From assembly GCA_963169585.1 (NCBI GenBank), contig CAUJDU010000036.1, positions 1 through 57,271 of the forward strand: 57,271 bases of DNA, in the 5' to 3' direction. Both the position numbers and the translations under genes were made by a program. Source of the DNA: Actinomycetota bacterium (GTDB lineage: Bacteria > Actinomycetota > Acidimicrobiia > IMCC26256 > JAGPDB01). The notes below the pieces were generated by a model, which worked only from the letters and a program-made list of their open reading frames with translations, searched no databases and was not told the origin of the DNA. Position 1 is the first letter of the stretch. Each line of letters begins with the position of its first letter. This document shows positions 14,229-57,261 of this stretch, one piece after another.

Positions 14229-14489
14229 GCAAACCCTGTTTTAAACGTTAGATATTGTTCACGTTTCGCGCCCGTCACTATCGCTCGGTACGCTCGGAGC
14301 CTGTAGTCTCCTCGCTCGCTGCAAATGTTCACAATATCTAACGTCTAAACCAGATTTGTTAATAGTGGATCTTGCTTGAATAGAAACTCAGGTTTTGCTC
14401 GAAGTGACATTTGGACTGAGCGCAGCGAAGGAAACGGAGCGTGAGTAAAGACAGGGTTACCATTATTAGGTAGACCAATTAATTAATGT
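14229..14489. other. GC-rich, multiply palindromic intergenic region between convergent genes (candidate structured RNA, MITE or bidirectional terminator)
   Basis: acgttagatattgt (14245-14258) pairs with acaatatctaacgt (14331-14344). aaccctgt (14232-14239) pairs with acagggtt (14451-14458). A GC-rich core at 14262-14322 is imperfectly complementary to 14405-14445. Confidence 0.4.
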
Positions 14490-17385: not shown

Positions 17386-17479
17386 GAGACCTAGCCTTCC
17401 AAATCGGACAAATTGCATAACAAATCATCTAGATAAGCCGTAAATGCGCGTTTTGTCGTTTTTGGAAGGCCAGGCCTCC
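17385..17479. repeat. 95-nt element with 19-nt terminal inverted repeats
   Basis: ggagacctagccttccaaa (17385-17403) versus tttggaaggccaggcctcc (17461-17479). The two mismatches are A-C on the plus strand but G-U on the minus strand. Confidence 0.5.
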
Positions 17480-17602
17480 TGTGTATGGTAGTAAACCGCT
17501 AGATTCCCGACCAAAATCCGCCCAACGCGCTTACATTAAAGCTTTTCGCTGTTTATGCCGAATATTCGTATAACAAAACCAATTGAAGCCAGGAGCACAA
17601 GT

Positions 17603-34398: not shown

Positions 34399-35007
34399 TT
34401 AATTTGGAGCTACAGCTTCTTTCAAGATGGCTATGACATGTTCTCTGCGAGTTTCTAGCGCGGCTTTGCTTAGAGGATCGCCGTCGATTACTGCACGCAC
34501 TAAGGAAGCATCAGACAAATAAGAGAGTGAAGCTCCGTAGCCAGTTATTAAGAGCTGTCTTGGATCATATGTTTTTAAACGACCTTGTTCCATTTCTGAT
34601 TGTAGATAAGCAGATCCTTGATCAACTAGTGGTCCAAGTGCAGTGCCAAGTTCACTAGAAAAGAGAGATTCTGGGTCTAGTGCTTCACGACGGGCTATCC
34701 GAACAAAGTACGGGTGCTGTTCGAAGAAAGTGAATGCTGCACGTAACAGTTTTTCTACTTGATCCCAACCGTTAATGTTGTCTCCGATAGCGTCAGTCAT
34801 CAAAAACACCCAGTCTGAAAACTCATCTAGAATCACTGCACGATATAGGGCCTCTTTTGAAGAAAAATGATGGAGTATGGAAGGTTTTTTTATCCCAACG
34901 TCTTCAGCAATTTCAGAAAGACTGACTCCAGCATATCCATGGTCGGCGAAGCGTTTTAAGGCGGCCTTTAGTATTAATGCTTTCGTATCATTTGGTGTCC
35001 TGGTCAC
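34399..35007 (-). CDS. TetR family transcriptional regulator
   Basis: N-terminal HTH (VSLSEIAEDVGIKKPSILHHFSSKEAL). Confidence 0.85.
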   Translation of the reverse strand: MTRTPNDTKALILKAALKRFADHGYAGVSLSEIAEDVGIKKPSILHHFSSKEALYRAVILDEFSDWVFLMTDAIGDNINGWDQVEKLLRAAFTFFEQHPYFVRIARREALDPESLFSSELGTALGPLVDQGSAYLQSEMEQGRLKTYDPRQLLITGYGASLSYLSDASLVRAVIDGDPLSKAALETRREHVIAILKEAVAPN

Positions 35008-35021
35008 GCATACATGTTAGT

Positions 35022-35100
35022 GGGGGTTGAACCCTACAAAAGGGATAAAAACACACATGGGTTACAAGTCAGGTTTGTTCCTTTTGTAAGGTTCAACCTC
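35022..35100. repeat. Palindromic ~80-nt repeat element, copy A (degenerate right arm)
   Basis: GGGGGTTGAACCCTACAAAAGG...CCTTTTGTAAGGTTCAACCTC. The first 34 nt are identical to the reverse complement of copy B. Confidence 0.8.
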
Positions 35101-35112
35101 TAGTAGTTCGTA

Positions 35113-37197
35113 CTATTTGAGTATTGAGAGAATATCCGTATATTCGTCTGTCCAAGGTTTAACCTTGCGAAAATCGTGGTTTCGTTTAACACTGCTAAAA
35201 GGCTTTTGATTAAGTAAATTCTTATCTCTAGTAAGTATTGCCCATTTCGCAGGTTCAGAGTTACCAATTATATTTACGTCATCCACAATATATACGAGGT
35301 ATGAATAGCCTTCTTTTTCTGCAATAGAAGCTATCACCGAGCGTAATTCCAGTCGATTACTTGAGATGTGCAGGAGGATAATTCCATTCGGATCTTTCAA
35401 ATTCTTTTCGTAGATTTTTAATGCTTCAGCAGTTAATAAATGTGTAGGTGCAGAGTCTCCATTAAATGCATCCAAAATAATGAGGTCGTATTTTTTAGCT
35501 TTCGGGTCTTTTAGCCTTTCTTGCATAAGAAGCCGACCATCACCGATGTTCACATGTGTATCTTCACACTTGTCTAAATATGTAAAGTATTTCTTTGCCG
35601 ACTTAGCAACGGTTTCACTAATTTCGTAATAATCATATGAATCTTTACCCTTGCACATACTAGATAGTTCACCAGCTCCCAGACCTAAAACAGCAACATC
35701 AATTTTTTCATTTTTTGCTCGTTCTCTTACATGCTCAAAAGAAGAGCTCAACGCTGAATTATCTAATGAAAAGTAAGGGCTAAGTTCATACTGGCGATCA
35801 GGATCTAGATGCTGGTTTCCTTGGACGACATGATTGTTGATCATTGATCTATAGTTATTTTGTTCTTTTACTTTTGTAACAACATAGAAATCTCTTTCTT
35901 GGAAAATTATGCCTTTATTGTCAGCGAATAAAAGAGTAAAAGATAGAAGTGCGATGAATGATATTGATGCACTTAGCATGGAAATATTTTTAACCTTAGT
36001 CGTCTTGTCTGATAAATAATTTTGGAATATGTAGAAAAGTAGGAATATCAGTGTAATTAAAATCCCAATTCGAAATTCGTAGATATCATTGAAAATAATC
36101 GGAGGGATAAGACTGGCAAAAAGTGTACCTAGTGCGCCACCCAATGAAGTAAACAAATAGAAAAAGGAGGACTTTTCCTTTGCTGGCCGAGAGGCATAAA
36201 GTTGGGAATGAAAGAAAAAGCCGAGCATAAAGAGTAAGAATACATATGAAGTTATTGTAAAAACTGCGCCTTGGTTGTTGAGCAACGACGAGATAGAGGC
36301 AGCAATAGCACAGGCTAAGAGTAATAATGAAGTATTATTAATTTTAATTCCGGTAAATGCGATGATGTAAGAAAGTAGATAAGCGCAAAGTGGGATTACC
36401 CAGAGCAATGGTATGGCCGTAATCTTCTGTGTAATTTCAGCTGTAGTTGCTACAAGCATAAATGTTGGTATCGATGAAAAGAGTAACCATTTTGTTATGG
36501 GGTAGTCCTTTATCTTTATTTTCAGAGGATGTTCTTCTTTAGCTTCATTAACTTTTGTAAGGATCGATAGTCGATAGCTAATGATAAGTGAAATGATTGT
36601 GAAAACAACGAAAAATACTGACCAAATTAGCTCTTGATTTTTTAATGTTGTCATTCTTTCGAATATGAAAGGGTAACTTAACAGTGCGAGTAGCGAGCCA
36701 ACATTTGAAATAGCGTAGAGCTTGTAGGGTTCTTTAGAGTTTGTTTTGGTAAACCAATGTTGAAACAAAGGTGATGTTGAACAAAGTAGCGTATATGGCA
36801 ACCCTACGCTTAGGAGTAATGTGGAAAGTACTGCAACTGAAGGATTCAGAGTCGTAGTTGATGTCCATTCGAGCGGGATCGATAGTGAATCGCGTTGGTA
36901 TATTGAGTAGATAACAAATATCAGACTAAGAACTGTTAAGGATGAGTGGATATAGATCTGTTTTATTGTAGAGATCTTGCCTAGGAAATATACGTAAGCA
37001 TAACCAACAAATAGCAGTGTGGAATAAAACATTAAGCTGGTTGTCCATACAGAAGAAGTCCCTCCAAACCAGGGCAGGAGATTTTTTGAGATAATAGGCT
37101 GGATTTGAAAGACCAAAAAAGCGCTCAGAAAAATTGCTAAAGCATAGAAATTTAGAAATATTGATTTATTAGATCTTTTTTGTAGGGAGGTCTTCAT
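35113..37197 (-). CDS. Polytopic membrane protein fused to a spermidine synthase-like (SpeE-fold) methyltransferase-type domain
   Basis: ~430 aa with many TM helices, then VAVLGLGAGE...DLIILDAFNGDSAPTHL. Lower GC than its neighbours by my hand counts. Confidence 0.75.
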   Translation of the reverse strand: MKTSLQKRSNKSIFLNFYALAIFLSAFLVFQIQPIISKNLLPWFGGTSSVWTTSLMFYSTLLFVGYAYVYFLGKISTIKQIYIHSSLTVLSLIFVIYSIYQRDSLSIPLEWTSTTTLNPSVAVLSTLLLSVGLPYTLLCSTSPLFQHWFTKTNSKEPYKLYAISNVGSLLALLSYPFIFERMTTLKNQELIWSVFFVVFTIISLIISYRLSILTKVNEAKEEHPLKIKIKDYPITKWLLFSSIPTFMLVATTAEITQKITAIPLLWVIPLCAYLLSYIIAFTGIKINNTSLLLLACAIAASISSLLNNQGAVFTITSYVFLLFMLGFFFHSQLYASRPAKEKSSFFYLFTSLGGALGTLFASLIPPIIFNDIYEFRIGILITLIFLLFYIFQNYLSDKTTKVKNISMLSASISFIALLSFTLLFADNKGIIFQERDFYVVTKVKEQNNYRSMINNHVVQGNQHLDPDRQYELSPYFSLDNSALSSSFEHVRERAKNEKIDVAVLGLGAGELSSMCKGKDSYDYYEISETVAKSAKKYFTYLDKCEDTHVNIGDGRLLMQERLKDPKAKKYDLIILDAFNGDSAPTHLLTAEALKIYEKNLKDPNGIILLHISSNRLELRSVIASIAEKEGYSYLVYIVDDVNIIGNSEPAKWAILTRDKNLLNQKPFSSVKRNHDFRKVKPWTDEYTDILSILK

Positions 37198-37325
37198 TAG
37201 GACTAACGTAACATTTTTAAGGTAATTTTGTAAGGACTATTTCGGTCTCATTCTTACATTTTTAGCTGCGTATGGTCGAAAATACTCAAAAAACCGACCA
37301 TTTTCGGCCCAACGTGAATAGAAAG

Positions 37326-37690
37326 TGGTGGAGGTGGGGGGTATCGAAACCCCCGTCCCTTGAGCCCTTTCATGAGCCTTCTCCGAGCGCAGTGTCTGGA
37401 AAGTTTTCGAATATCTGGGCGCCAGTCACACGCATCCAAATACCTAGTTAACTAAATATGTCCTCGTAAGTAGCTAACGCCTTACGGAGCAAGCACCGTA
37501 GTTGAACCCAGTGCGGCGACGGTGCCTGCCGCTTTGGGCACTGCTTAAAACTAATTAAGCAGCTAGTGCGTAGTTGGAGCTTTCGCTCTCATCTGTTGCA
37601 TTTATTATGTTTACAGACTCTTTAACGACAGTCTGCAACGTCGGCTCGCTTCTCTCACGGCTAAGTACAAGGTCGAAACCAAGCACCCCC
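37326..37690 (-). ncRNA. ssrA: tmRNA (SsrA)
   Basis: 5' GGGGGTGCTTGGTTTCGACC and 3' GGGGGTTTCGATACCCCCCACCTCCACCA on the minus strand. Tag ORF GCA...GCT GCT TAA (37599-37555) encodes ATDESESSNYALAA. Lies adjacent to smpB. Confidence 0.9.
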
Positions 37691-37730
37691 GCAGGTATAT
37701 TGTACCTCGACGTGTCAAGTTATTTTTACT

Positions 37731-37811
37731 GGGGGTTGAACCCTACAAAAGGAACAAAACGCGACATGGGAATCATATGTGTTTTTATCCCTTTTGTAGG
37801 GTTCAACCCCC
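37731..37811. repeat. Palindromic ~80-nt repeat element, copy B (perfect 22-bp arms)
   Basis: GGGGGTTGAACCCTACAAAAGG (37731-37752) is perfectly complementary to 37790-37811. Lies between the smpB stop and the ssrA 5' end. Confidence 0.85.
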
Positions 37812-37819
37812 AGTGGTGT

Positions 37820-38311
37820 TTAGCGGTTTCGCTGTTTAAGCGCACGTGCGATATCGCGGTTTGCATCACGTTTTTTAATATCGTCGCGCTTATCGTATTG
37901 TTTCTTTCCTCGGCCAACACCAATTGTCACTTTTACCATTCCTCGTACAAAATCGAGTCGAATAGGAATCAGTGTTACTCCACGTTCTTCTAGATGTTTA
38001 GACATCTCAAGGATTTCTTTTTTATGAGCTAATAAAACCCTGCTTCGATCTGGATCTACTTCTCCACGAGAAAATTCATAAGGTTTGATATGCATTCCAT
38101 ATAAAGTCAATTGATCACCGTCGGTTCTAGCAAAAGCTTCATCTATGGAAACATGTTTTAACCGCAAAGATTTTACTTCTGGTCCAAGTAAACTAATTCC
38201 ACATTGGTAAGTTTCTAGAATATGGAAATCGCGTTTCGCTTTCCTATTAGTTGCAATTAGGCCATCACCTCGACGTTGCTCAGGTGTTTGTTCTTTAGTC
38301 ATAGCCAACAC
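37820..38311 (-). CDS. smpB: SsrA-binding protein SmpB
   Basis: Typical SmpB sequence (IATNRKAKRDF...GISLLGPEVKSLR...) with a basic C-terminal tail. Confidence 0.95.
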   Translation of the reverse strand: MLAMTKEQTPEQRRGDGLIATNRKAKRDFHILETYQCGISLLGPEVKSLRLKHVSIDEAFARTDGDQLTLYGMHIKPYEFSRGEVDPDRSRVLLAHKKEILEMSKHLEERGVTLIPIRLDFVRGMVKVTIGVGRGKKQYDKRDDIKKRDANRDIARALKQRNR

Positions 38312-48782: not shown

Positions 48783-49392
48783 TAATAATCGAGAAGCGAT
48801 TTCTAAAATCTCGCAAGCGAAAGTTCCAACTTCTTGGGGGGATTTCATCTGCCATGTTTTCCAAAGCAAAATAGATGCAATAGAACACCTAGCTTTTGTT
48901 AAAGGTGATGTTGAAAATAATGAAAATGTTCTTGTTCGTATACATTCTGAATGTATTACTGGAGATATTTTTCATTCCAGAAAGTGTGACTGTGGAGACC
49001 AGTTGGGTAGAGCAATGGATGCAATCGCTAAAGATGGTGGCATATTTATATATTTGCGCGGACATGAAGGTCGTGGCATTGGGATTGGTGCAAAGATAAA
49101 AGCTTATAGTTTGCAAGAACAAGGCTTAGATACAGTCCAAGCCAACGAGGAACTCGGTTTCCCAGTTGACGACAGGAACTACGAAATCGCGGCATTGATT
49201 CTGCAAGAATTTAAGGTTGGCTCTATTGAGTTAATAACAAACAATATGAACAAGGTTGAAGAAGTCGAAAGTTTTGGAATAAAAGTAGCGAAAAGGATAT
49301 CTTTAATTCCTAACATCACAAATGAAAACCTTTCTTATCTAAAAACCAAAAATGCGAAACTTGGACATTTAATTGAAGGTGTTGACAGTTAA
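48763..49392 (+). CDS. ribA: GTP cyclohydrolase II, monofunctional (no RibB domain)
   Basis: RIHSECITGDIFHSRKCDCGDQL, 209 aa; overlaps ribD by 20 nt. Confidence 0.9.
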   Translation: MDIMTISNNREAISKISQAKVPTSWGDFICHVFQSKIDAIEHLAFVKGDVENNENVLVRIHSECITGDIFHSRKCDCGDQLGRAMDAIAKDGGIFIYLRGHEGRGIGIGAKIKAYSLQEQGLDTVQANEELGFPVDDRNYEIAALILQEFKVGSIELITNNMNKVEEVESFGIKVAKRISLIPNITNENLSYLKTKNAKLGHLIEGVDS

Positions 49393-50516
49393 TGTCAGAT
49401 GCTTTTATCACTGCTTTTGGAGAATATCTTCCTGGAGAGCCTGTTGATAACGATCACATTGAAGATTTTATAGGAATTATCGGTGATCAAATTTCTAAAT
49501 ATAAGAAGATGGTGTTACGACAAAACAAAATTGTATCCAGACATTATGCGTGTAATAAAGATGGGCAATTTGAGTTTACGGTTGCACAAATAGCAGCTAA
49601 AGCAATTGAAGATGCGATAGATAACTCGCAAGCAGATATTAGTGATCTTGAGTTCCTGGCAACAAGCTGTTCTATCCATGATTCAATTATTCCTGGGCTG
49701 GCATCTTTAGTACACGGACAACTTGGGGCTGATCGCATTGACATTTCAAGCCATCAAAGTGTTTGTGGTAGCTCAATTATGGCCATGCGAAGTGCAGTAA
49801 ATGCAATACGATTAGAAGAATTCAAGCTGGCGTGTGTATCAGGGTCAGAAATTGCCAGTAGACATTTTCGTCCGACATTTTACGAAGGAACGCAACACTT
49901 TAAACAAGAAAATGCATTACCTCTAGAACAAGAATTTTTACGATACACACTTTCTGATGGTGCAGGTGCAGCAATAATTGAGTCTCGTCCAAATGTAAAT
50001 GCTATTTCATTGAAAGTTAAATGGATCAAAGCCCGTTCGTTTGCCAATAGATTTTCCACCTGCATGATTGGTGGTGCGATAAAAGAAGAAGGAAGGGTTA
50101 TTTCTTGGGGAAACCAGGAAAGTCTACAAGCGGCTATTGAAAAAGGGTGCTTTGCTTTATCTCAAGATCTAAAACTCGTATATGAAATGATCCCTGTTTG
50201 GGTGGGTCATTATCTATCGTTAGTCGAAGACGGGCTAATTGATCCAGAGAAAATCGACCACGTAGTAAGCCATTATTCATCGGAAAGTTTAAAGGCAGAA
50301 GTTGTTAAACTGTTAACGAAAGCTGGCGTAATGATCGATGAAGAAAAATGGTTTTCTAATTTAACTTATAAAGGAAATACTGGGTCTGCTTCAATTTTTA
50401 TTTTACTTAACGAATTATTCTATTCGGGCAAATTAAAAGTGGGCGATAGTGTTCTTTGTCATGTCCCCGAAAGTGGACAGGCTTATAATTCATTTATGCT
50501 TTTGGAAGTTGTGTGA
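49392..50516 (+). CDS. KAS III (FabH)-like thiolase-fold condensing enzyme of unknown specificity
   Basis: Cys-His-Asn candidates in SVCGSS, VSHYSS and KGNTGSAS. TAATG overlap with ribA. Confidence 0.8.
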   Translation: MSDAFITAFGEYLPGEPVDNDHIEDFIGIIGDQISKYKKMVLRQNKIVSRHYACNKDGQFEFTVAQIAAKAIEDAIDNSQADISDLEFLATSCSIHDSIIPGLASLVHGQLGADRIDISSHQSVCGSSIMAMRSAVNAIRLEEFKLACVSGSEIASRHFRPTFYEGTQHFKQENALPLEQEFLRYTLSDGAGAAIIESRPNVNAISLKVKWIKARSFANRFSTCMIGGAIKEEGRVISWGNQESLQAAIEKGCFALSQDLKLVYEMIPVWVGHYLSLVEDGLIDPEKIDHVVSHYSSESLKAEVVKLLTKAGVMIDEEKWFSNLTYKGNTGSASIFILLNELFYSGKLKVGDSVLCHVPESGQAYNSFMLLEVV

Positions 50517-51184
50517 AAATGTCTAGCGAATCTGTAATGCGTAATTTATTGATTGTCTGGACAGATTTTGAATCACGTTTAAACACTGTTCCTATAATGA
50601 AAAAATTAAATAATGGTCGATTTAGCATTGAAGATTATAAAGAGCTATTAGTCAATCACCGCCAGCAAGTTGTTGAAGGGTCTAGATGGATTGCACGTGC
50701 TGCTTCAAGCATTACGTCGGATTATCTTGAACAACGTTCGACCTTTTTAAAACACAGTGTAACTGAACATAGAGACTACGAAATGTTAGAGAACCAATTT
50801 TGTGCAATTGGTGGAACACTCGAGGAAATCCGAAATGCTCCTAAAAACATTGGTACTGAAATATTTCATTCTTATATGTACGAACAATCAAGCCAGCAAA
50901 ACCCGTTTCATCTGCTTGGATCAATGTTTATAATTGAAGGTTTAGGACAAAGGAAGGCTAAACGCTGGGGTTTAGCTATTAAGGATCAACTTGATTTAGA
51001 CGACAAAGCAGTTGAGTTCTACATCTATCATGGAGACAACGATCCAGAGCATATGGAAGAATTCGAACATAGCTTGAATTCAGGAATTTTAGAAATAGAG
51101 TCAATGGGCGAAAAGATAGTTAAGACGGCAAAGATCACTGCTTTACTTTATGAGCTGCAGTTGCGTGAGATTGGAAACTATTGA
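50513..51184 (+). CDS. Heme-oxygenase-like fold protein (iron-containing redox enzyme family), candidate diiron oxidase
   Basis: All-helical 223-aa ORF with Glu/His candidates on separate segments (E55, E85-H86, E142, H173, D177/E179-H180). Overlaps the KAS III gene by 4 nt. Confidence 0.55.
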   Translation: MKMSSESVMRNLLIVWTDFESRLNTVPIMKKLNNGRFSIEDYKELLVNHRQQVVEGSRWIARAASSITSDYLEQRSTFLKHSVTEHRDYEMLENQFCAIGGTLEEIRNAPKNIGTEIFHSYMYEQSSQQNPFHLLGSMFIIEGLGQRKAKRWGLAIKDQLDLDDKAVEFYIYHGDNDPEHMEEFEHSLNSGILEIESMGEKIVKTAKITALLYELQLREIGNY

Positions 51185-51768
51185 TGGATAATAGACTTGA
51201 GATGCTAGTTCTCAATCTAATTCTGTTTGTTATTTTACCACTTTGGGGTTTTTCTGGTTTGTGGGATTGGTGGTGTCACAAAAAATCTAACATCGAGAAA
51301 ACATCTGGTCTTAAAGAATCATTGATCCATGCATTAATGGGTATACAAATTGCTATTCCTATGCTTATCGGAATATTTTTTCAATTTTCGGTTTTAACAT
51401 ATTTGATAATGCTTGCATGTTTAGTTTCTCACGAAGTGGTTGCACATTGGGATGTTCATTATTCGGCACCTAAACGAGAGATAACTATCTGGGAAATGCA
51501 CGCACATAATTATTTGGCAACTATCCCTTTGTATCTGATCGCGTTGATAAGTGTTTTGGGTTGGGAAACGGTAAAGGATACTTTTACTTTGCAATGGTCA
51601 GGATCAATGTATTTTCGACTACGAGATGTTCCAATAGGTGGAGATAAATATTATGTAATATATGGTGTTTTTATTGCATTGGTTTGTGGCTTCCCTTATG
51701 TAGCTGAAATACTACGTTGCTTAAGACATAGGAAAAAGGTAGGAAAAGATGGCAGTGTCACAACGTGA
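51181..51768 (+). CDS. Small polytopic membrane protein with clustered histidines
   Basis: ~4-5 TM helices. His motifs WWCHKK, LIHAL, SHEVVAHWDVHY, EMHAHNY. Overlaps the upstream gene. Confidence 0.55.
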   Translation: MMDNRLEMLVLNLILFVILPLWGFSGLWDWWCHKKSNIEKTSGLKESLIHALMGIQIAIPMLIGIFFQFSVLTYLIMLACLVSHEVVAHWDVHYSAPKREITIWEMHAHNYLATIPLYLIALISVLGWETVKDTFTLQWSGSMYFRLRDVPIGGDKYYVIYGVFIALVCGFPYVAEILRCLRHRKKVGKDGSVTT

Positions 51769-52600
51769 TTTTGAAAGCCCATATATAAAAGCAATACTTA
51801 AAGATAGATCTTTACCGATCGCTGATATTGCTGTTGGGATGTGGGTCAAGGATTTGAAAGGTCCATTACGTTTGGTTGTTATGCCTGTATTGCGGGTGAT
51901 GCTATCGGGATTACTAATTTTGATATGGACTATTAAGAGGGCGTGCCCGATACAATTTAGTTCTCATAACAACTTACAAAAATTAATTTGTTGGTTTTGT
52001 GAGAATTTTGTGACTCCAGAAGCTAATTATTTAATTTTGCGACACTTCTGGGCAGAGTCAAATATCATCAATTTTTTGATTGATAACGAAGATCCACAAG
52101 CACCAGATTCTGTTGATGAGATTGCTCCGCTTGAACTATATCCGGATACGATAGCACAGATGATGCAAGCAAGTTTTGTTGATCACGATCAAGAACTTTT
52201 CCGATACTTTAAAGAATCTAGTTCTACGCCAGTTAAGAAGCCGCTAAAGAAGGCAGATTTGAAATGGGATAATTGGAGAGAGATTGATATTGATGAAAAT
52301 GTTTTGAAAGGAAAACCTACACAACGAATCGATTTTGAAACAGCACACGTGTTGTTCATGTGTATATTCTGTTTATTTTTAACAGCTGATGAATATCGTG
52401 CAGCAATTAACGGTTTTAATTTAGATCAGTCAATGGCAATTCGTATAGGAGCGATTATTGGCGATAGTTCAGTTGAAACTTATGCTTACAATAAACATCC
52501 ACTGTATTTATTAGGTCCGATCGATTTAACACGTAGATTTATTTTGCATGGATTTTTTACGGAGTATATGCACGAGCGACTTTTGCAGGAGAAGAAATAA
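51749..52600 (+). CDS. Hypothetical protein (orphan) with one or two hydrophobic segments
   Basis: 283-aa ORF overlapping the upstream gene by 20 nt. I recognise no motif. Confidence 0.5.
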   Translation: MAVSQRDFESPYIKAILKDRSLPIADIAVGMWVKDLKGPLRLVVMPVLRVMLSGLLILIWTIKRACPIQFSSHNNLQKLICWFCENFVTPEANYLILRHFWAESNIINFLIDNEDPQAPDSVDEIAPLELYPDTIAQMMQASFVDHDQELFRYFKESSSTPVKKPLKKADLKWDNWREIDIDENVLKGKPTQRIDFETAHVLFMCIFCLFLTADEYRAAINGFNLDQSMAIRIGAIIGDSSVETYAYNKHPLYLLGPIDLTRRFILHGFFTEYMHERLLQEKK

Positions 52601-57238: not shown

Positions 57239-57261
57239 TTAAGAGGGTCCGACCCTCTTAA
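57239..57261 (+). terminator. 10-bp perfect hairpin after the kinase-like gene (no U tract)
   Basis: ttaagagggt-ccg-accctcttaa. Confidence 0.3.

Follow-up and report, generated by a model that had tools for sequence, protein, structure and literature searches.

Gene order and palindromes at the smpB-ssrA-tetR locus

We analyzed a stretch of 57,271 nucleotides (nt) from a genome of Acidimicrobiia (Actinomycetota), corresponding to positions 1-57,271 of contig CAUJDU010000036.1 in assembly GCA_963169585.1 and called the window below. Two palindromic elements in this window, copies A and B, enclose the transfer-messenger RNA (tmRNA) gene ssrA and a gene for a large membrane protein. The host genome is a metagenome-assembled genome (MAG) of 1.57 Mb in 147 contigs, with 39.9% GC and approximately 91% coding sequence according to a crude open reading frame (ORF) model. 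Because the MAG is fragmented and several of its contigs end in units of the repeat described here, all copy numbers are lower bounds.

On the minus strand, the order of features is smpB, copy B, ssrA, the membrane protein gene, copy A, and tetR. The smpB gene (37820-38302, minus strand; PF01668, 164 bits) and the gene for a TetR-family regulator (34399-35007, minus strand; 82-88% identity among relatives) form the conserved flanks. The tmRNA gene (37326-37690, minus strand) was identified by ARAGORN and by Rfam RF00023 (130 bits), and encodes the tag ATDESESSNYALAA. The gene between ssrA and tetR (35113-37197, minus strand) encodes a 694-amino acid (aa) fused MFS/spermidine-synthase-like (SpeE-like) membrane protein that matches NF037959 with 40.3 bits.

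Copy B (37728-37814) consists of two inverted units with arms at 37731-37752 and 37790-37811 around a 37-nt center. Copy A (35019-35104) has the same architecture with a decayed right arm. A pattern search of the window with the 22-mer GGGGGTTGAACCCTACAAAAGG yielded matches without mismatches at 35022-35043 (+), 37731-37752 (+), and 37790-37811 (-), and a match with three mismatches at 35080-35101 (-); none of 100 dinucleotide shuffles contained a match. When measured as inverted repeats, the arms of copy B extend over 32 nt with 94% complementarity and 23 nt between them, and the arms of copy A are 81% complementary. The predicted RNA folds have free energies of -59.4 kcal/mol (z = -11.8) for copy B and -31.2 kcal/mol (z = -4.6) for copy A. 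The two copies share an exact identity of 35 nt, as positions 35021-35055 of A equal the reverse complement of positions 37778-37812 of B. These results agree with an earlier note on this DNA, made from the sequence alone, which had described the perfect 22-bp arms of B, the decayed right arm of A together with its long exact match to the reverse complement of B, and the enclosure of ssrA and the SpeE-like gene by the pair. Its further remark that the arm contains a string resembling a tRNA T-arm came down to a mere resemblance over 11 nt, at a site where ARAGORN reports no tRNA. A tRNA-derived origin of this string was rejected, since the palindromic core forms a stem of 3-5 bp with a loop of 1-5 nt instead of the 5 bp and 7 nt of a T-arm.

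Both copies lie between a stop codon and a promoter-like sequence. Copy B starts 6 nt past the stop codon of smpB and ends 9 nt short of a conserved TTGACA...TACAAT stretch upstream of ssrA. Copy A begins 11 nt beyond the stop codon of the 694-aa gene; its far end lies 2 nt upstream of TAACAT, the -10-like hexamer of the tetR promoter. Thus, to judge from these distances, both insertions take up the only dispensable bases of their spacers. Inversion of the A-B segment by recombination was also considered and rejected, as gene order and strand are the same in all relatives.

A family of REP doublets in the genome

Copies A and B are members of a dispersed family of repetitive extragenic palindromic (REP) sequences. 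The REP unit comprises a GTAG foot (GCAG or GGAG in some copies), an 11-nt mini-palindrome head GGGTYSRACCC, and an A-rich tail CAAAAGGNAYAAAAC. Two such units, inverted relative to each other and approximately 20 nt apart, form a REP doublet (REPIN) that folds into a hairpin of approximately 85 nt. The head of A and B (type 1) reads GGGTTSAACCC, and sister sub-families have the head GGGTCSGACCC (type 2) or GGAGGCCTGGCC (type 3). At the hairpin foot, copies A and B as well as at least nine further units carry TTTGTAGGGTTCAACCC.

The earlier note had proposed counting the 22-nt arm across the genome. This search produced 17 matches at 10 contig sites, versus none for a reversed control pattern. 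The type-1 head is present at about 14 loci, to which the two sister head types add more; exact cores number 14 for type 1, 30 for type 2, and 38 for type 3. Every one of the 14 exact type-1 cores lies outside accepted ORFs, as do 26 of the 30 type-2 cores, and most adjoin gene 3' ends. In a k-mer census, GGGTTGAACCCTACAA (11 copies) ranks among the commonest 16-mers. Seven complete doublets are located on contigs C10, C35, C36 (two), C50, C56, and C77, and a hybrid doublet is located on C15; several single REP units stand at contig ends. An alignment of eight doublets supports one consensus hairpin of 29 pairs, nine of which show compensatory changes, with z-scores of the individual folds between -4.6 and -11.8. 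At Rfam gathering thresholds, the sole match in nine REPIN-holding loci is the tmRNA.

The three head types differ in their arrangement. Type 2 (AAGAGGGTCSGACCCTCTTA, approximately 16-30 copies) is found chiefly as single units that are fused to stop codons. Type 3 (GGAGGCCTGGCCCGGCAAAAGG) is the commonest repeat of the genome, with 33 copies of its 16-mer, and shares its inner scaffold with type 1; examples of type-3 doublets are found at C12:7897, C50:11003, and C88:17270, and one type-3 unit lies at approximately 17468 in the window. Hybrid doublets combine the types: the one on C15 joins a type-1 unit to a type-2 unit, and the one on C50 carries a type-2 head on a type-1 tail.

A scan of metagenomes for the 21-nt arm gave no match. 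A second scan, with a 16-mer, returned at least 120 single matches, which were discarded as chance matches since none of the 80 loci that were fetched contained a doublet.

The RAYT gene

A search of the genome with the Pfam Y1_Tnp model identified a sole gene for a REP-associated tyrosine transposase (RAYT), which encodes a protein of 188 aa (C104:24973-25536). No further copy was detected by tblastn with nine homologues from sister genomes. The protein scores 25.2 bits on PF01797, for which the cut-off is 23 bits. Two motifs, H78-x-H80 and Y139-I-H-x-N-P (residues H78, H80, Y139, I140, H141, and N143), are fully or almost fully conserved across 19 homologues. The top match in a profile search of the PDB is 4ER8, TnpA-REP of Escherichia coli; phmmer against the same database gave noise only. 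The AlphaFold model of the protein (pLDDT 91.4) has chain 4ER8_A as its best fold match (E = 3e-6, TM-score 0.66, 175 aligned columns), and the best chain of the IS200/IS605 group reaches E = 2e-4 with a query-normalized TM-score (TMq) of 0.43.

Both sides of the gene carry GAGGGTCSGACCCTC in inverted orientation, in units whose feet read AAGA or GGAG. The same arrangement extends to relatives. All nine RAYT homologues in sister genomes are flanked by inverted palindromes of their own, and an orthologue with 71% identity is found in the same synteny, flanked by GAGGGTCTGACCCTC. Inverted repeats of 11 nt or more flank the gene in 32 of 62 distant relatives, versus 2 of 62 shuffled controls. G004, the only sister genome that lacks a RAYT gene, also has no match to the REP pattern. 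By its motifs, fold, copy number, and flanks, the 188-aa gene is a RAYT, and the synteny of its orthologue points to vertical inheritance at a fixed locus. The element family of REP or miniature inverted-repeat transposable element (MITE) type, which the earlier note had offered beside an island, is therefore borne out and can be specified as a REPIN family that is probably tied to a RAYT gene.

The nearest relatives of this RAYT beyond the genus are mostly from Saccharibacteria/Patescibacteria MAGs. Some of the relatives in Saccharibacteria and other MAGs are flanked by the same GGGTCSGACCC core; horizontal spread of a whole unit of RAYT and REP across phyla is hinted at by such sequences. 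Most RAYT genes of the genus have a motif, TGTCGTACC, approximately 25-40 nt upstream of their starts, whichever palindrome flanks them; a role as promoter, operator, or cleavage site is conceivable. A RAYT gene of sister genome G001 (on its contig C8) is flanked by GGAGGCCTGGCCTCC. No RAYT gene flanked by the type-3 head is assembled in the genome studied here.

Empty sites in related genomes

The closest relative found, represented by six contigs and designated R1, has an identical tmRNA tag and encodes SmpB and TetR with 89 and 88% identity, respectively. Its gene order is smpB, a 50-nt spacer, ssrA, a gene for a 216-aa F420-type oxidoreductase on the opposite strand, a gene for a 689-aa homologue of the SpeE-like protein, a 38-nt spacer, and tetR. 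Both REPIN sites are empty in R1, and the flanks align well, including the TTGACA...TACAAT stretch 5' of ssrA. The sites of A and B are empty in six sister genomes of the same genus as well. Since both sites are empty in R1 and their flanks are conserved, A and B are recent insertions. The comparison of filled and empty sites places them after the split from the closest sampled relative, that is, after a recent split.

All Logan short-read contigs from this population break off within REPIN B, at a point 37 nt beyond the stop codon of smpB. A break at this position is as expected of a dispersed repeat. In practical terms, the repeats explain the fragmentation of this MAG, of which they are one cause, as contigs break inside them.

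Origin of the two palindromes

Taken together, these data lead us to conclude, with a probability of roughly 0.8, that A and B are REPINs that were spread by the RAYT of this genome and recently inserted, and are not the borders of an island. By analogy with TnpA-REP of E. coli and the REPINs of Pseudomonas, a single domesticated transposase probably spreads these REPINs. The RAYT, as a Y1 HUH single-strand DNA transposase of the TnpA-REP type, would bind the REP hairpin in single-stranded DNA. It would then cut and rejoin DNA at the hairpin, copying REPINs to new intergenic sites without target-site duplication. Copies A and B would be two such insertions, each in a tolerated spot between a stop codon and the next promoter, and the bracketing of ssrA and the SpeE-like gene would follow incidentally from the adjacency of two permissive spacers. 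As parts of a transcript, the hairpins may serve as barriers at mRNA 3' ends.

Several points weigh against this conclusion. The units that flank the RAYT gene have the GGGTCSGACCC head of type 2 and not the GGGTTSAACCC head of A and B, and hence the link between the RAYT and type 1 rests on the hybrid copies on C15 and C50 and on the shared tail. A second RAYT gene could be unassembled in the fragmented MAG. The score of the protein on NF047646, the equivalog model for REP_Tyr_transpos, is 36.7 bits, under the cut-off of 80 bits. With 4-5 bp, the stem of the mini-palindrome is short by the standard of described REPs. Transposition and cleavage by the RAYT are ascribed to this genome by analogy. 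Finally, no within-population insertion polymorphism was seen, as all contigs found carry copy B.

One alternative explanation is that the hairpins are kept for a function in host RNA, as terminators or 3'-end stabilizers of smpB and the 694-aa gene, or in coupling smpB to trans-translation through a hairpin at most 15 nt past the smpB stop codon. REPs of E. coli reportedly stabilize upstream mRNA and, when located within approximately 15 nt of a stop codon, lower translation via ribosome stalling and tmRNA. The distances of B and A from the preceding stop codons fit such a role, as do the extreme stability of the B hairpin and the location of 8 of the 14 type-1 cores within 15 nt of a stop codon. 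However, the empty sites in the closest relative and in all sisters imply that no conserved function depends on the hairpins, copy A is decaying, and neither hairpin is followed by a U-tract. We therefore regard maintenance for an RNA function as unlikely.

A second alternative is that A and B are ordinary MITEs unrelated to the RAYT, i.e., terminal inverted repeats left by an insertion sequence of DDE type after the loss of its transposase. The elements are indeed short, palindromic, dispersed, lineage-specific, and intergenic, and the difference between their head and that of the RAYT flanks would be natural in such a case. On the other hand, no target-site duplication is visible in the flanking sequences of any of the seven complete doublets. 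The entire element is a hairpin, with compensatory changes deep in the stem. The GTAG foot and the tail are common to the units that flank RAYT genes both here and in relatives. Moreover, the REP pattern tracks the RAYT across sister genomes, with both missing from G004. An origin as ordinary MITEs is thus quite improbable.

The SpeE-like gene and the flanks of ssrA

tmRNA genes are classic integration sites. The earlier note had accordingly suggested an old island at the ssrA 3' end; in that case the palindromes could be its decayed borders (att-like or terminal repeats) and the low-GC SpeE-like gene its cargo. As in tmRNA-targeted islands, variable genes are found beside ssrA. The 694-aa gene is missing from all six representative genomes of the same genus. 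The gap between ssrA and tetR varies among sisters from approximately 75 bp to 4 kb and holds differing cargo: it is empty in G002, contains the 216-aa gene in four genomes, two of which also have two methyltransferase-like genes, and contains a gene for a membrane protein in G005. The gap between smpB and ssrA ranges from approximately 0 to 1.5 kb. Thus, the flanks of ssrA are a true hot spot of gene content. REPIN junctions fall at variable slots in four or five of five cases, compared with a baseline of approximately 10 indels of at least 450 bp per about 55 junctions (55 kb aligned with G004); this is at most suggestive of enrichment of REPINs at synteny breaks, given the small number of loci and the crude baseline.

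The GC content of the SpeE-like gene is 35.9%, versus the genome mean of 39.9%; among the 797 ORFs with a length of 250 aa or more, the gene ranks at the 4th percentile (z = -1.76). At the first codon position, GC is depressed (GC1, z = -2.3), whereas at the third position it is 32.9% (GC3), above the genome mean (z = +1.6). Because the dip resides in codon positions 1 and 2 and GC3 exceeds the mean, the low GC content reflects amino-acid composition. The GC dip noticed earlier is real, if modest, and the codon-position profile speaks against the foreign origin that had been considered for it.

The protein has more than 4000 homologues, the best of them with 44% identity. In R1 and in two other relatives, R2 and R3, syntenic homologues are 41-44% identical to it, and the alignment is collinear over the full length. 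R2 and R3 likewise have the order 216-aa gene, MFS/spermidine-synthase gene, tetR. From this arrangement in R1-R3, the SpeE-like gene is older than both REPINs and did not originally abut ssrA. The MFS/spermidine-synthase proteins of the genome studied here and of R1, R2, and R3 are 41-59% identical to each other, and the adjacent TetR proteins are 82-88% identical; the 216-aa oxidoreductases of relatives with the same order show 44-77% identity. Both genes thus diverge far faster than the adjacent tetR. For the 694-aa gene, these sequence comparisons suggest that it evolves fast or that alleles are replaced within the slot; the gene is a resident of the ssrA-tetR interval but diverges rapidly. 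Comparison of the smpB-ssrA-tetR junction thus upheld the variability of the locus expected in the earlier note, with differing spacers and no copy of the gene in any of the six sisters, and did not uphold the view of the gene as an addition to this genome, since R1, R2, and R3 carry it.

Other signs of integration are lacking. The last 60 nt of ssrA have downstream duplicates of at most 9 nt, which are chance matches. The contig has no tyrosine-recombinase gene, and all five PF00589 matches of the genome are on other contigs; the statement in the earlier note that no integrase is present was correct. Given that there is neither an integrase nor an ssrA-derived direct repeat, that copy B stands on the 5' side of ssrA and not at an island end, that R1-R3 have a collinear homologue in the same slot without REPINs and with the 216-aa gene separating it from ssrA, that GC3 argues for amino-acid content as the source of the low GC, and that the palindrome also occurs at about a dozen unrelated loci, an old island bracketed by the palindromes is highly improbable despite the absence of the gene from sisters, its low GC, and the variable gap. 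A false lead is thereby removed: the locus is not a tmRNA-targeted island.

Comparison with known REPIN-RAYT systems

The system is of a known kind in a host lineage that is new for it. The anatomy of its elements agrees with the definitions of REPs and REPINs given by Bertels and Rainey (2011), Di Nocera et al. (2013), and Quentin et al. (2018). REPIN-RAYT systems have been described in Pseudomonas fluorescens SBW25 (Bertels and Rainey, 2011, PMC3116915; Bertels et al., 2017, PMC5581495). The REPINs of that strain similarly consist of two inverted REPs, form hairpins of approximately 80-100 nt, and are extragenic. Both systems have one RAYT per genome, flanked by REPs and vertically inherited at a fixed locus, and in both the flanking 16-mers are over-represented. 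In contrast to P. fluorescens, the host considered here is a streamlined Acidimicrobiia genome of 1.57 Mb with copies in the tens rather than the hundreds. Three head types share one inner scaffold, whereas only one RAYT is assembled, and this RAYT belongs to a divergent clade with its kin mostly in Saccharibacteria/Patescibacteria MAGs.

The second well-studied case is the REP sequences and bacterial interspersed mosaic elements of E. coli with TnpA-REP (PDB 4ER8; Messing et al., 2012, PMC3479197), for which the REPtron concept was formulated (Quentin et al., 2018, PMC6006769). Common features are a GTAG foot beside the hairpin, several REP sub-types for a single enzyme (Y, Z1, and Z2 in E. 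coli), and a catalytic core with HUH and tyrosine motifs; in structure, the RAYT studied here matches 4ER8 best. The differences are also clear. The sequence identity of the RAYT to TnpA-REP is only about 11%, and its score is under the NCBIfam equivalog cut-off. The stem of the REP unit is much shorter (4-8 bp), and the conserved A-rich tail between the head and the center has no counterpart in E. coli.

The family also conforms to the GTAG-tagged REP super-family (Di Nocera et al., 2013, PMC3733652). The similarities include the GTAG (or GYAG/GKAG) terminus, stems of 5-13 bp, the predominance of head-to-head dimers with the existence of hybrid dimers, units that abut or supply stop codons, and repeats that flank RAYT genes. 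The phyla covered by that survey are Proteobacteria, Cyanobacteria, Chloroflexi, and the PVC group; Actinomycetota are not named. The present data thus document a REPIN-RAYT system in Acidimicrobiia, a class of this unlisted phylum.

The occurrence of several heads on one scaffold raises a broader, though unlikely, scenario of a REPIN super-family with at least three interchangeable heads and a conserved inner tail and center (CAAAAGGNAYAAAAC-GYACATG), all of which would depend on a single RAYT from a clade that also occurs in Saccharibacteria. If so, the specificity determinant or the unit of selection would be located inside the hairpin and not at the GTAG foot, and a streamlined genome of 1.57 Mb would tolerate at least five active repeat families. 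A weaker extension of this scenario is that REPIN B, located 6 nt past the smpB stop codon and ahead of ssrA, may feed back on trans-translation. Modular heads and several expanding repeat families in a streamlined genome of freshwater type provide material on substrate choice by RAYTs and on the persistence of REPINs, and the modular-head architecture may be worth a biochemical look.

Neighboring genes and other repeats

The ORFs that flank the locus on the contig encode SmpB, TetR, JAB, DUF3052, and M23 proteins. An exact look-up of the 163-aa SmpB ORF gave no match; the 160-aa form, which starts from an ATG, matches other contigs on record. A -10 hexamer TANNNT is located exactly 6 nt before the GTG start of tetR in every relative (the site of this genome is at 35005-35019), a spacing that suggests a leaderless mRNA. 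The sequence TACGTT occurs 7 nt 5' of the ATG of the 694-aa gene.

Near the end of the window, at 57245-57255, a stop codon is directly followed by a single REP unit with the head type of the RAYT flanks (AAGAGGGTCCGACCCTCTTA).

A 48-nt dispersed repeat, unrelated to the REPINs (GCGTTGGGCCGA...ACGACCATACGC), is located at 37268-37315 on the minus strand, 10 nt past the tmRNA 3' end. This copy stands where relatives have the 216-aa gene, and it contains the sole hairpin of the region that, together with a T-run, resembles a terminator. The repeat (GCGTTGGGCCGATTAAGSTYGRRAATC...GTTTACRACCATACGC) ends in short, imperfect inverted repeats and has no consensus RNA fold. The genome contains approximately 36-43 copies, including another one in the window at approximately 17470-17528; exact 12-mers of the repeat number 26 in this genome and 0 in six sisters. 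A further repeat family is represented by CCCGAAATTAGGGGTGAAAAAGGC, with 16-mers that have 12-14 copies in the genome.

One spacer and one gene cluster of the window also differ from sister genome G004. The spacer at 14229-14489 is missing from the collinear region of G004. Within it, positions 14285-14351 match many contigs of sister genomes with 80-92% identity and are therefore another genus-wide dispersed repeat. A four-gene ketosynthase/oxidase cassette at 49390-52600 in the window is approximately 13 kb off its collinear position in G004 (C2:192002-195192).

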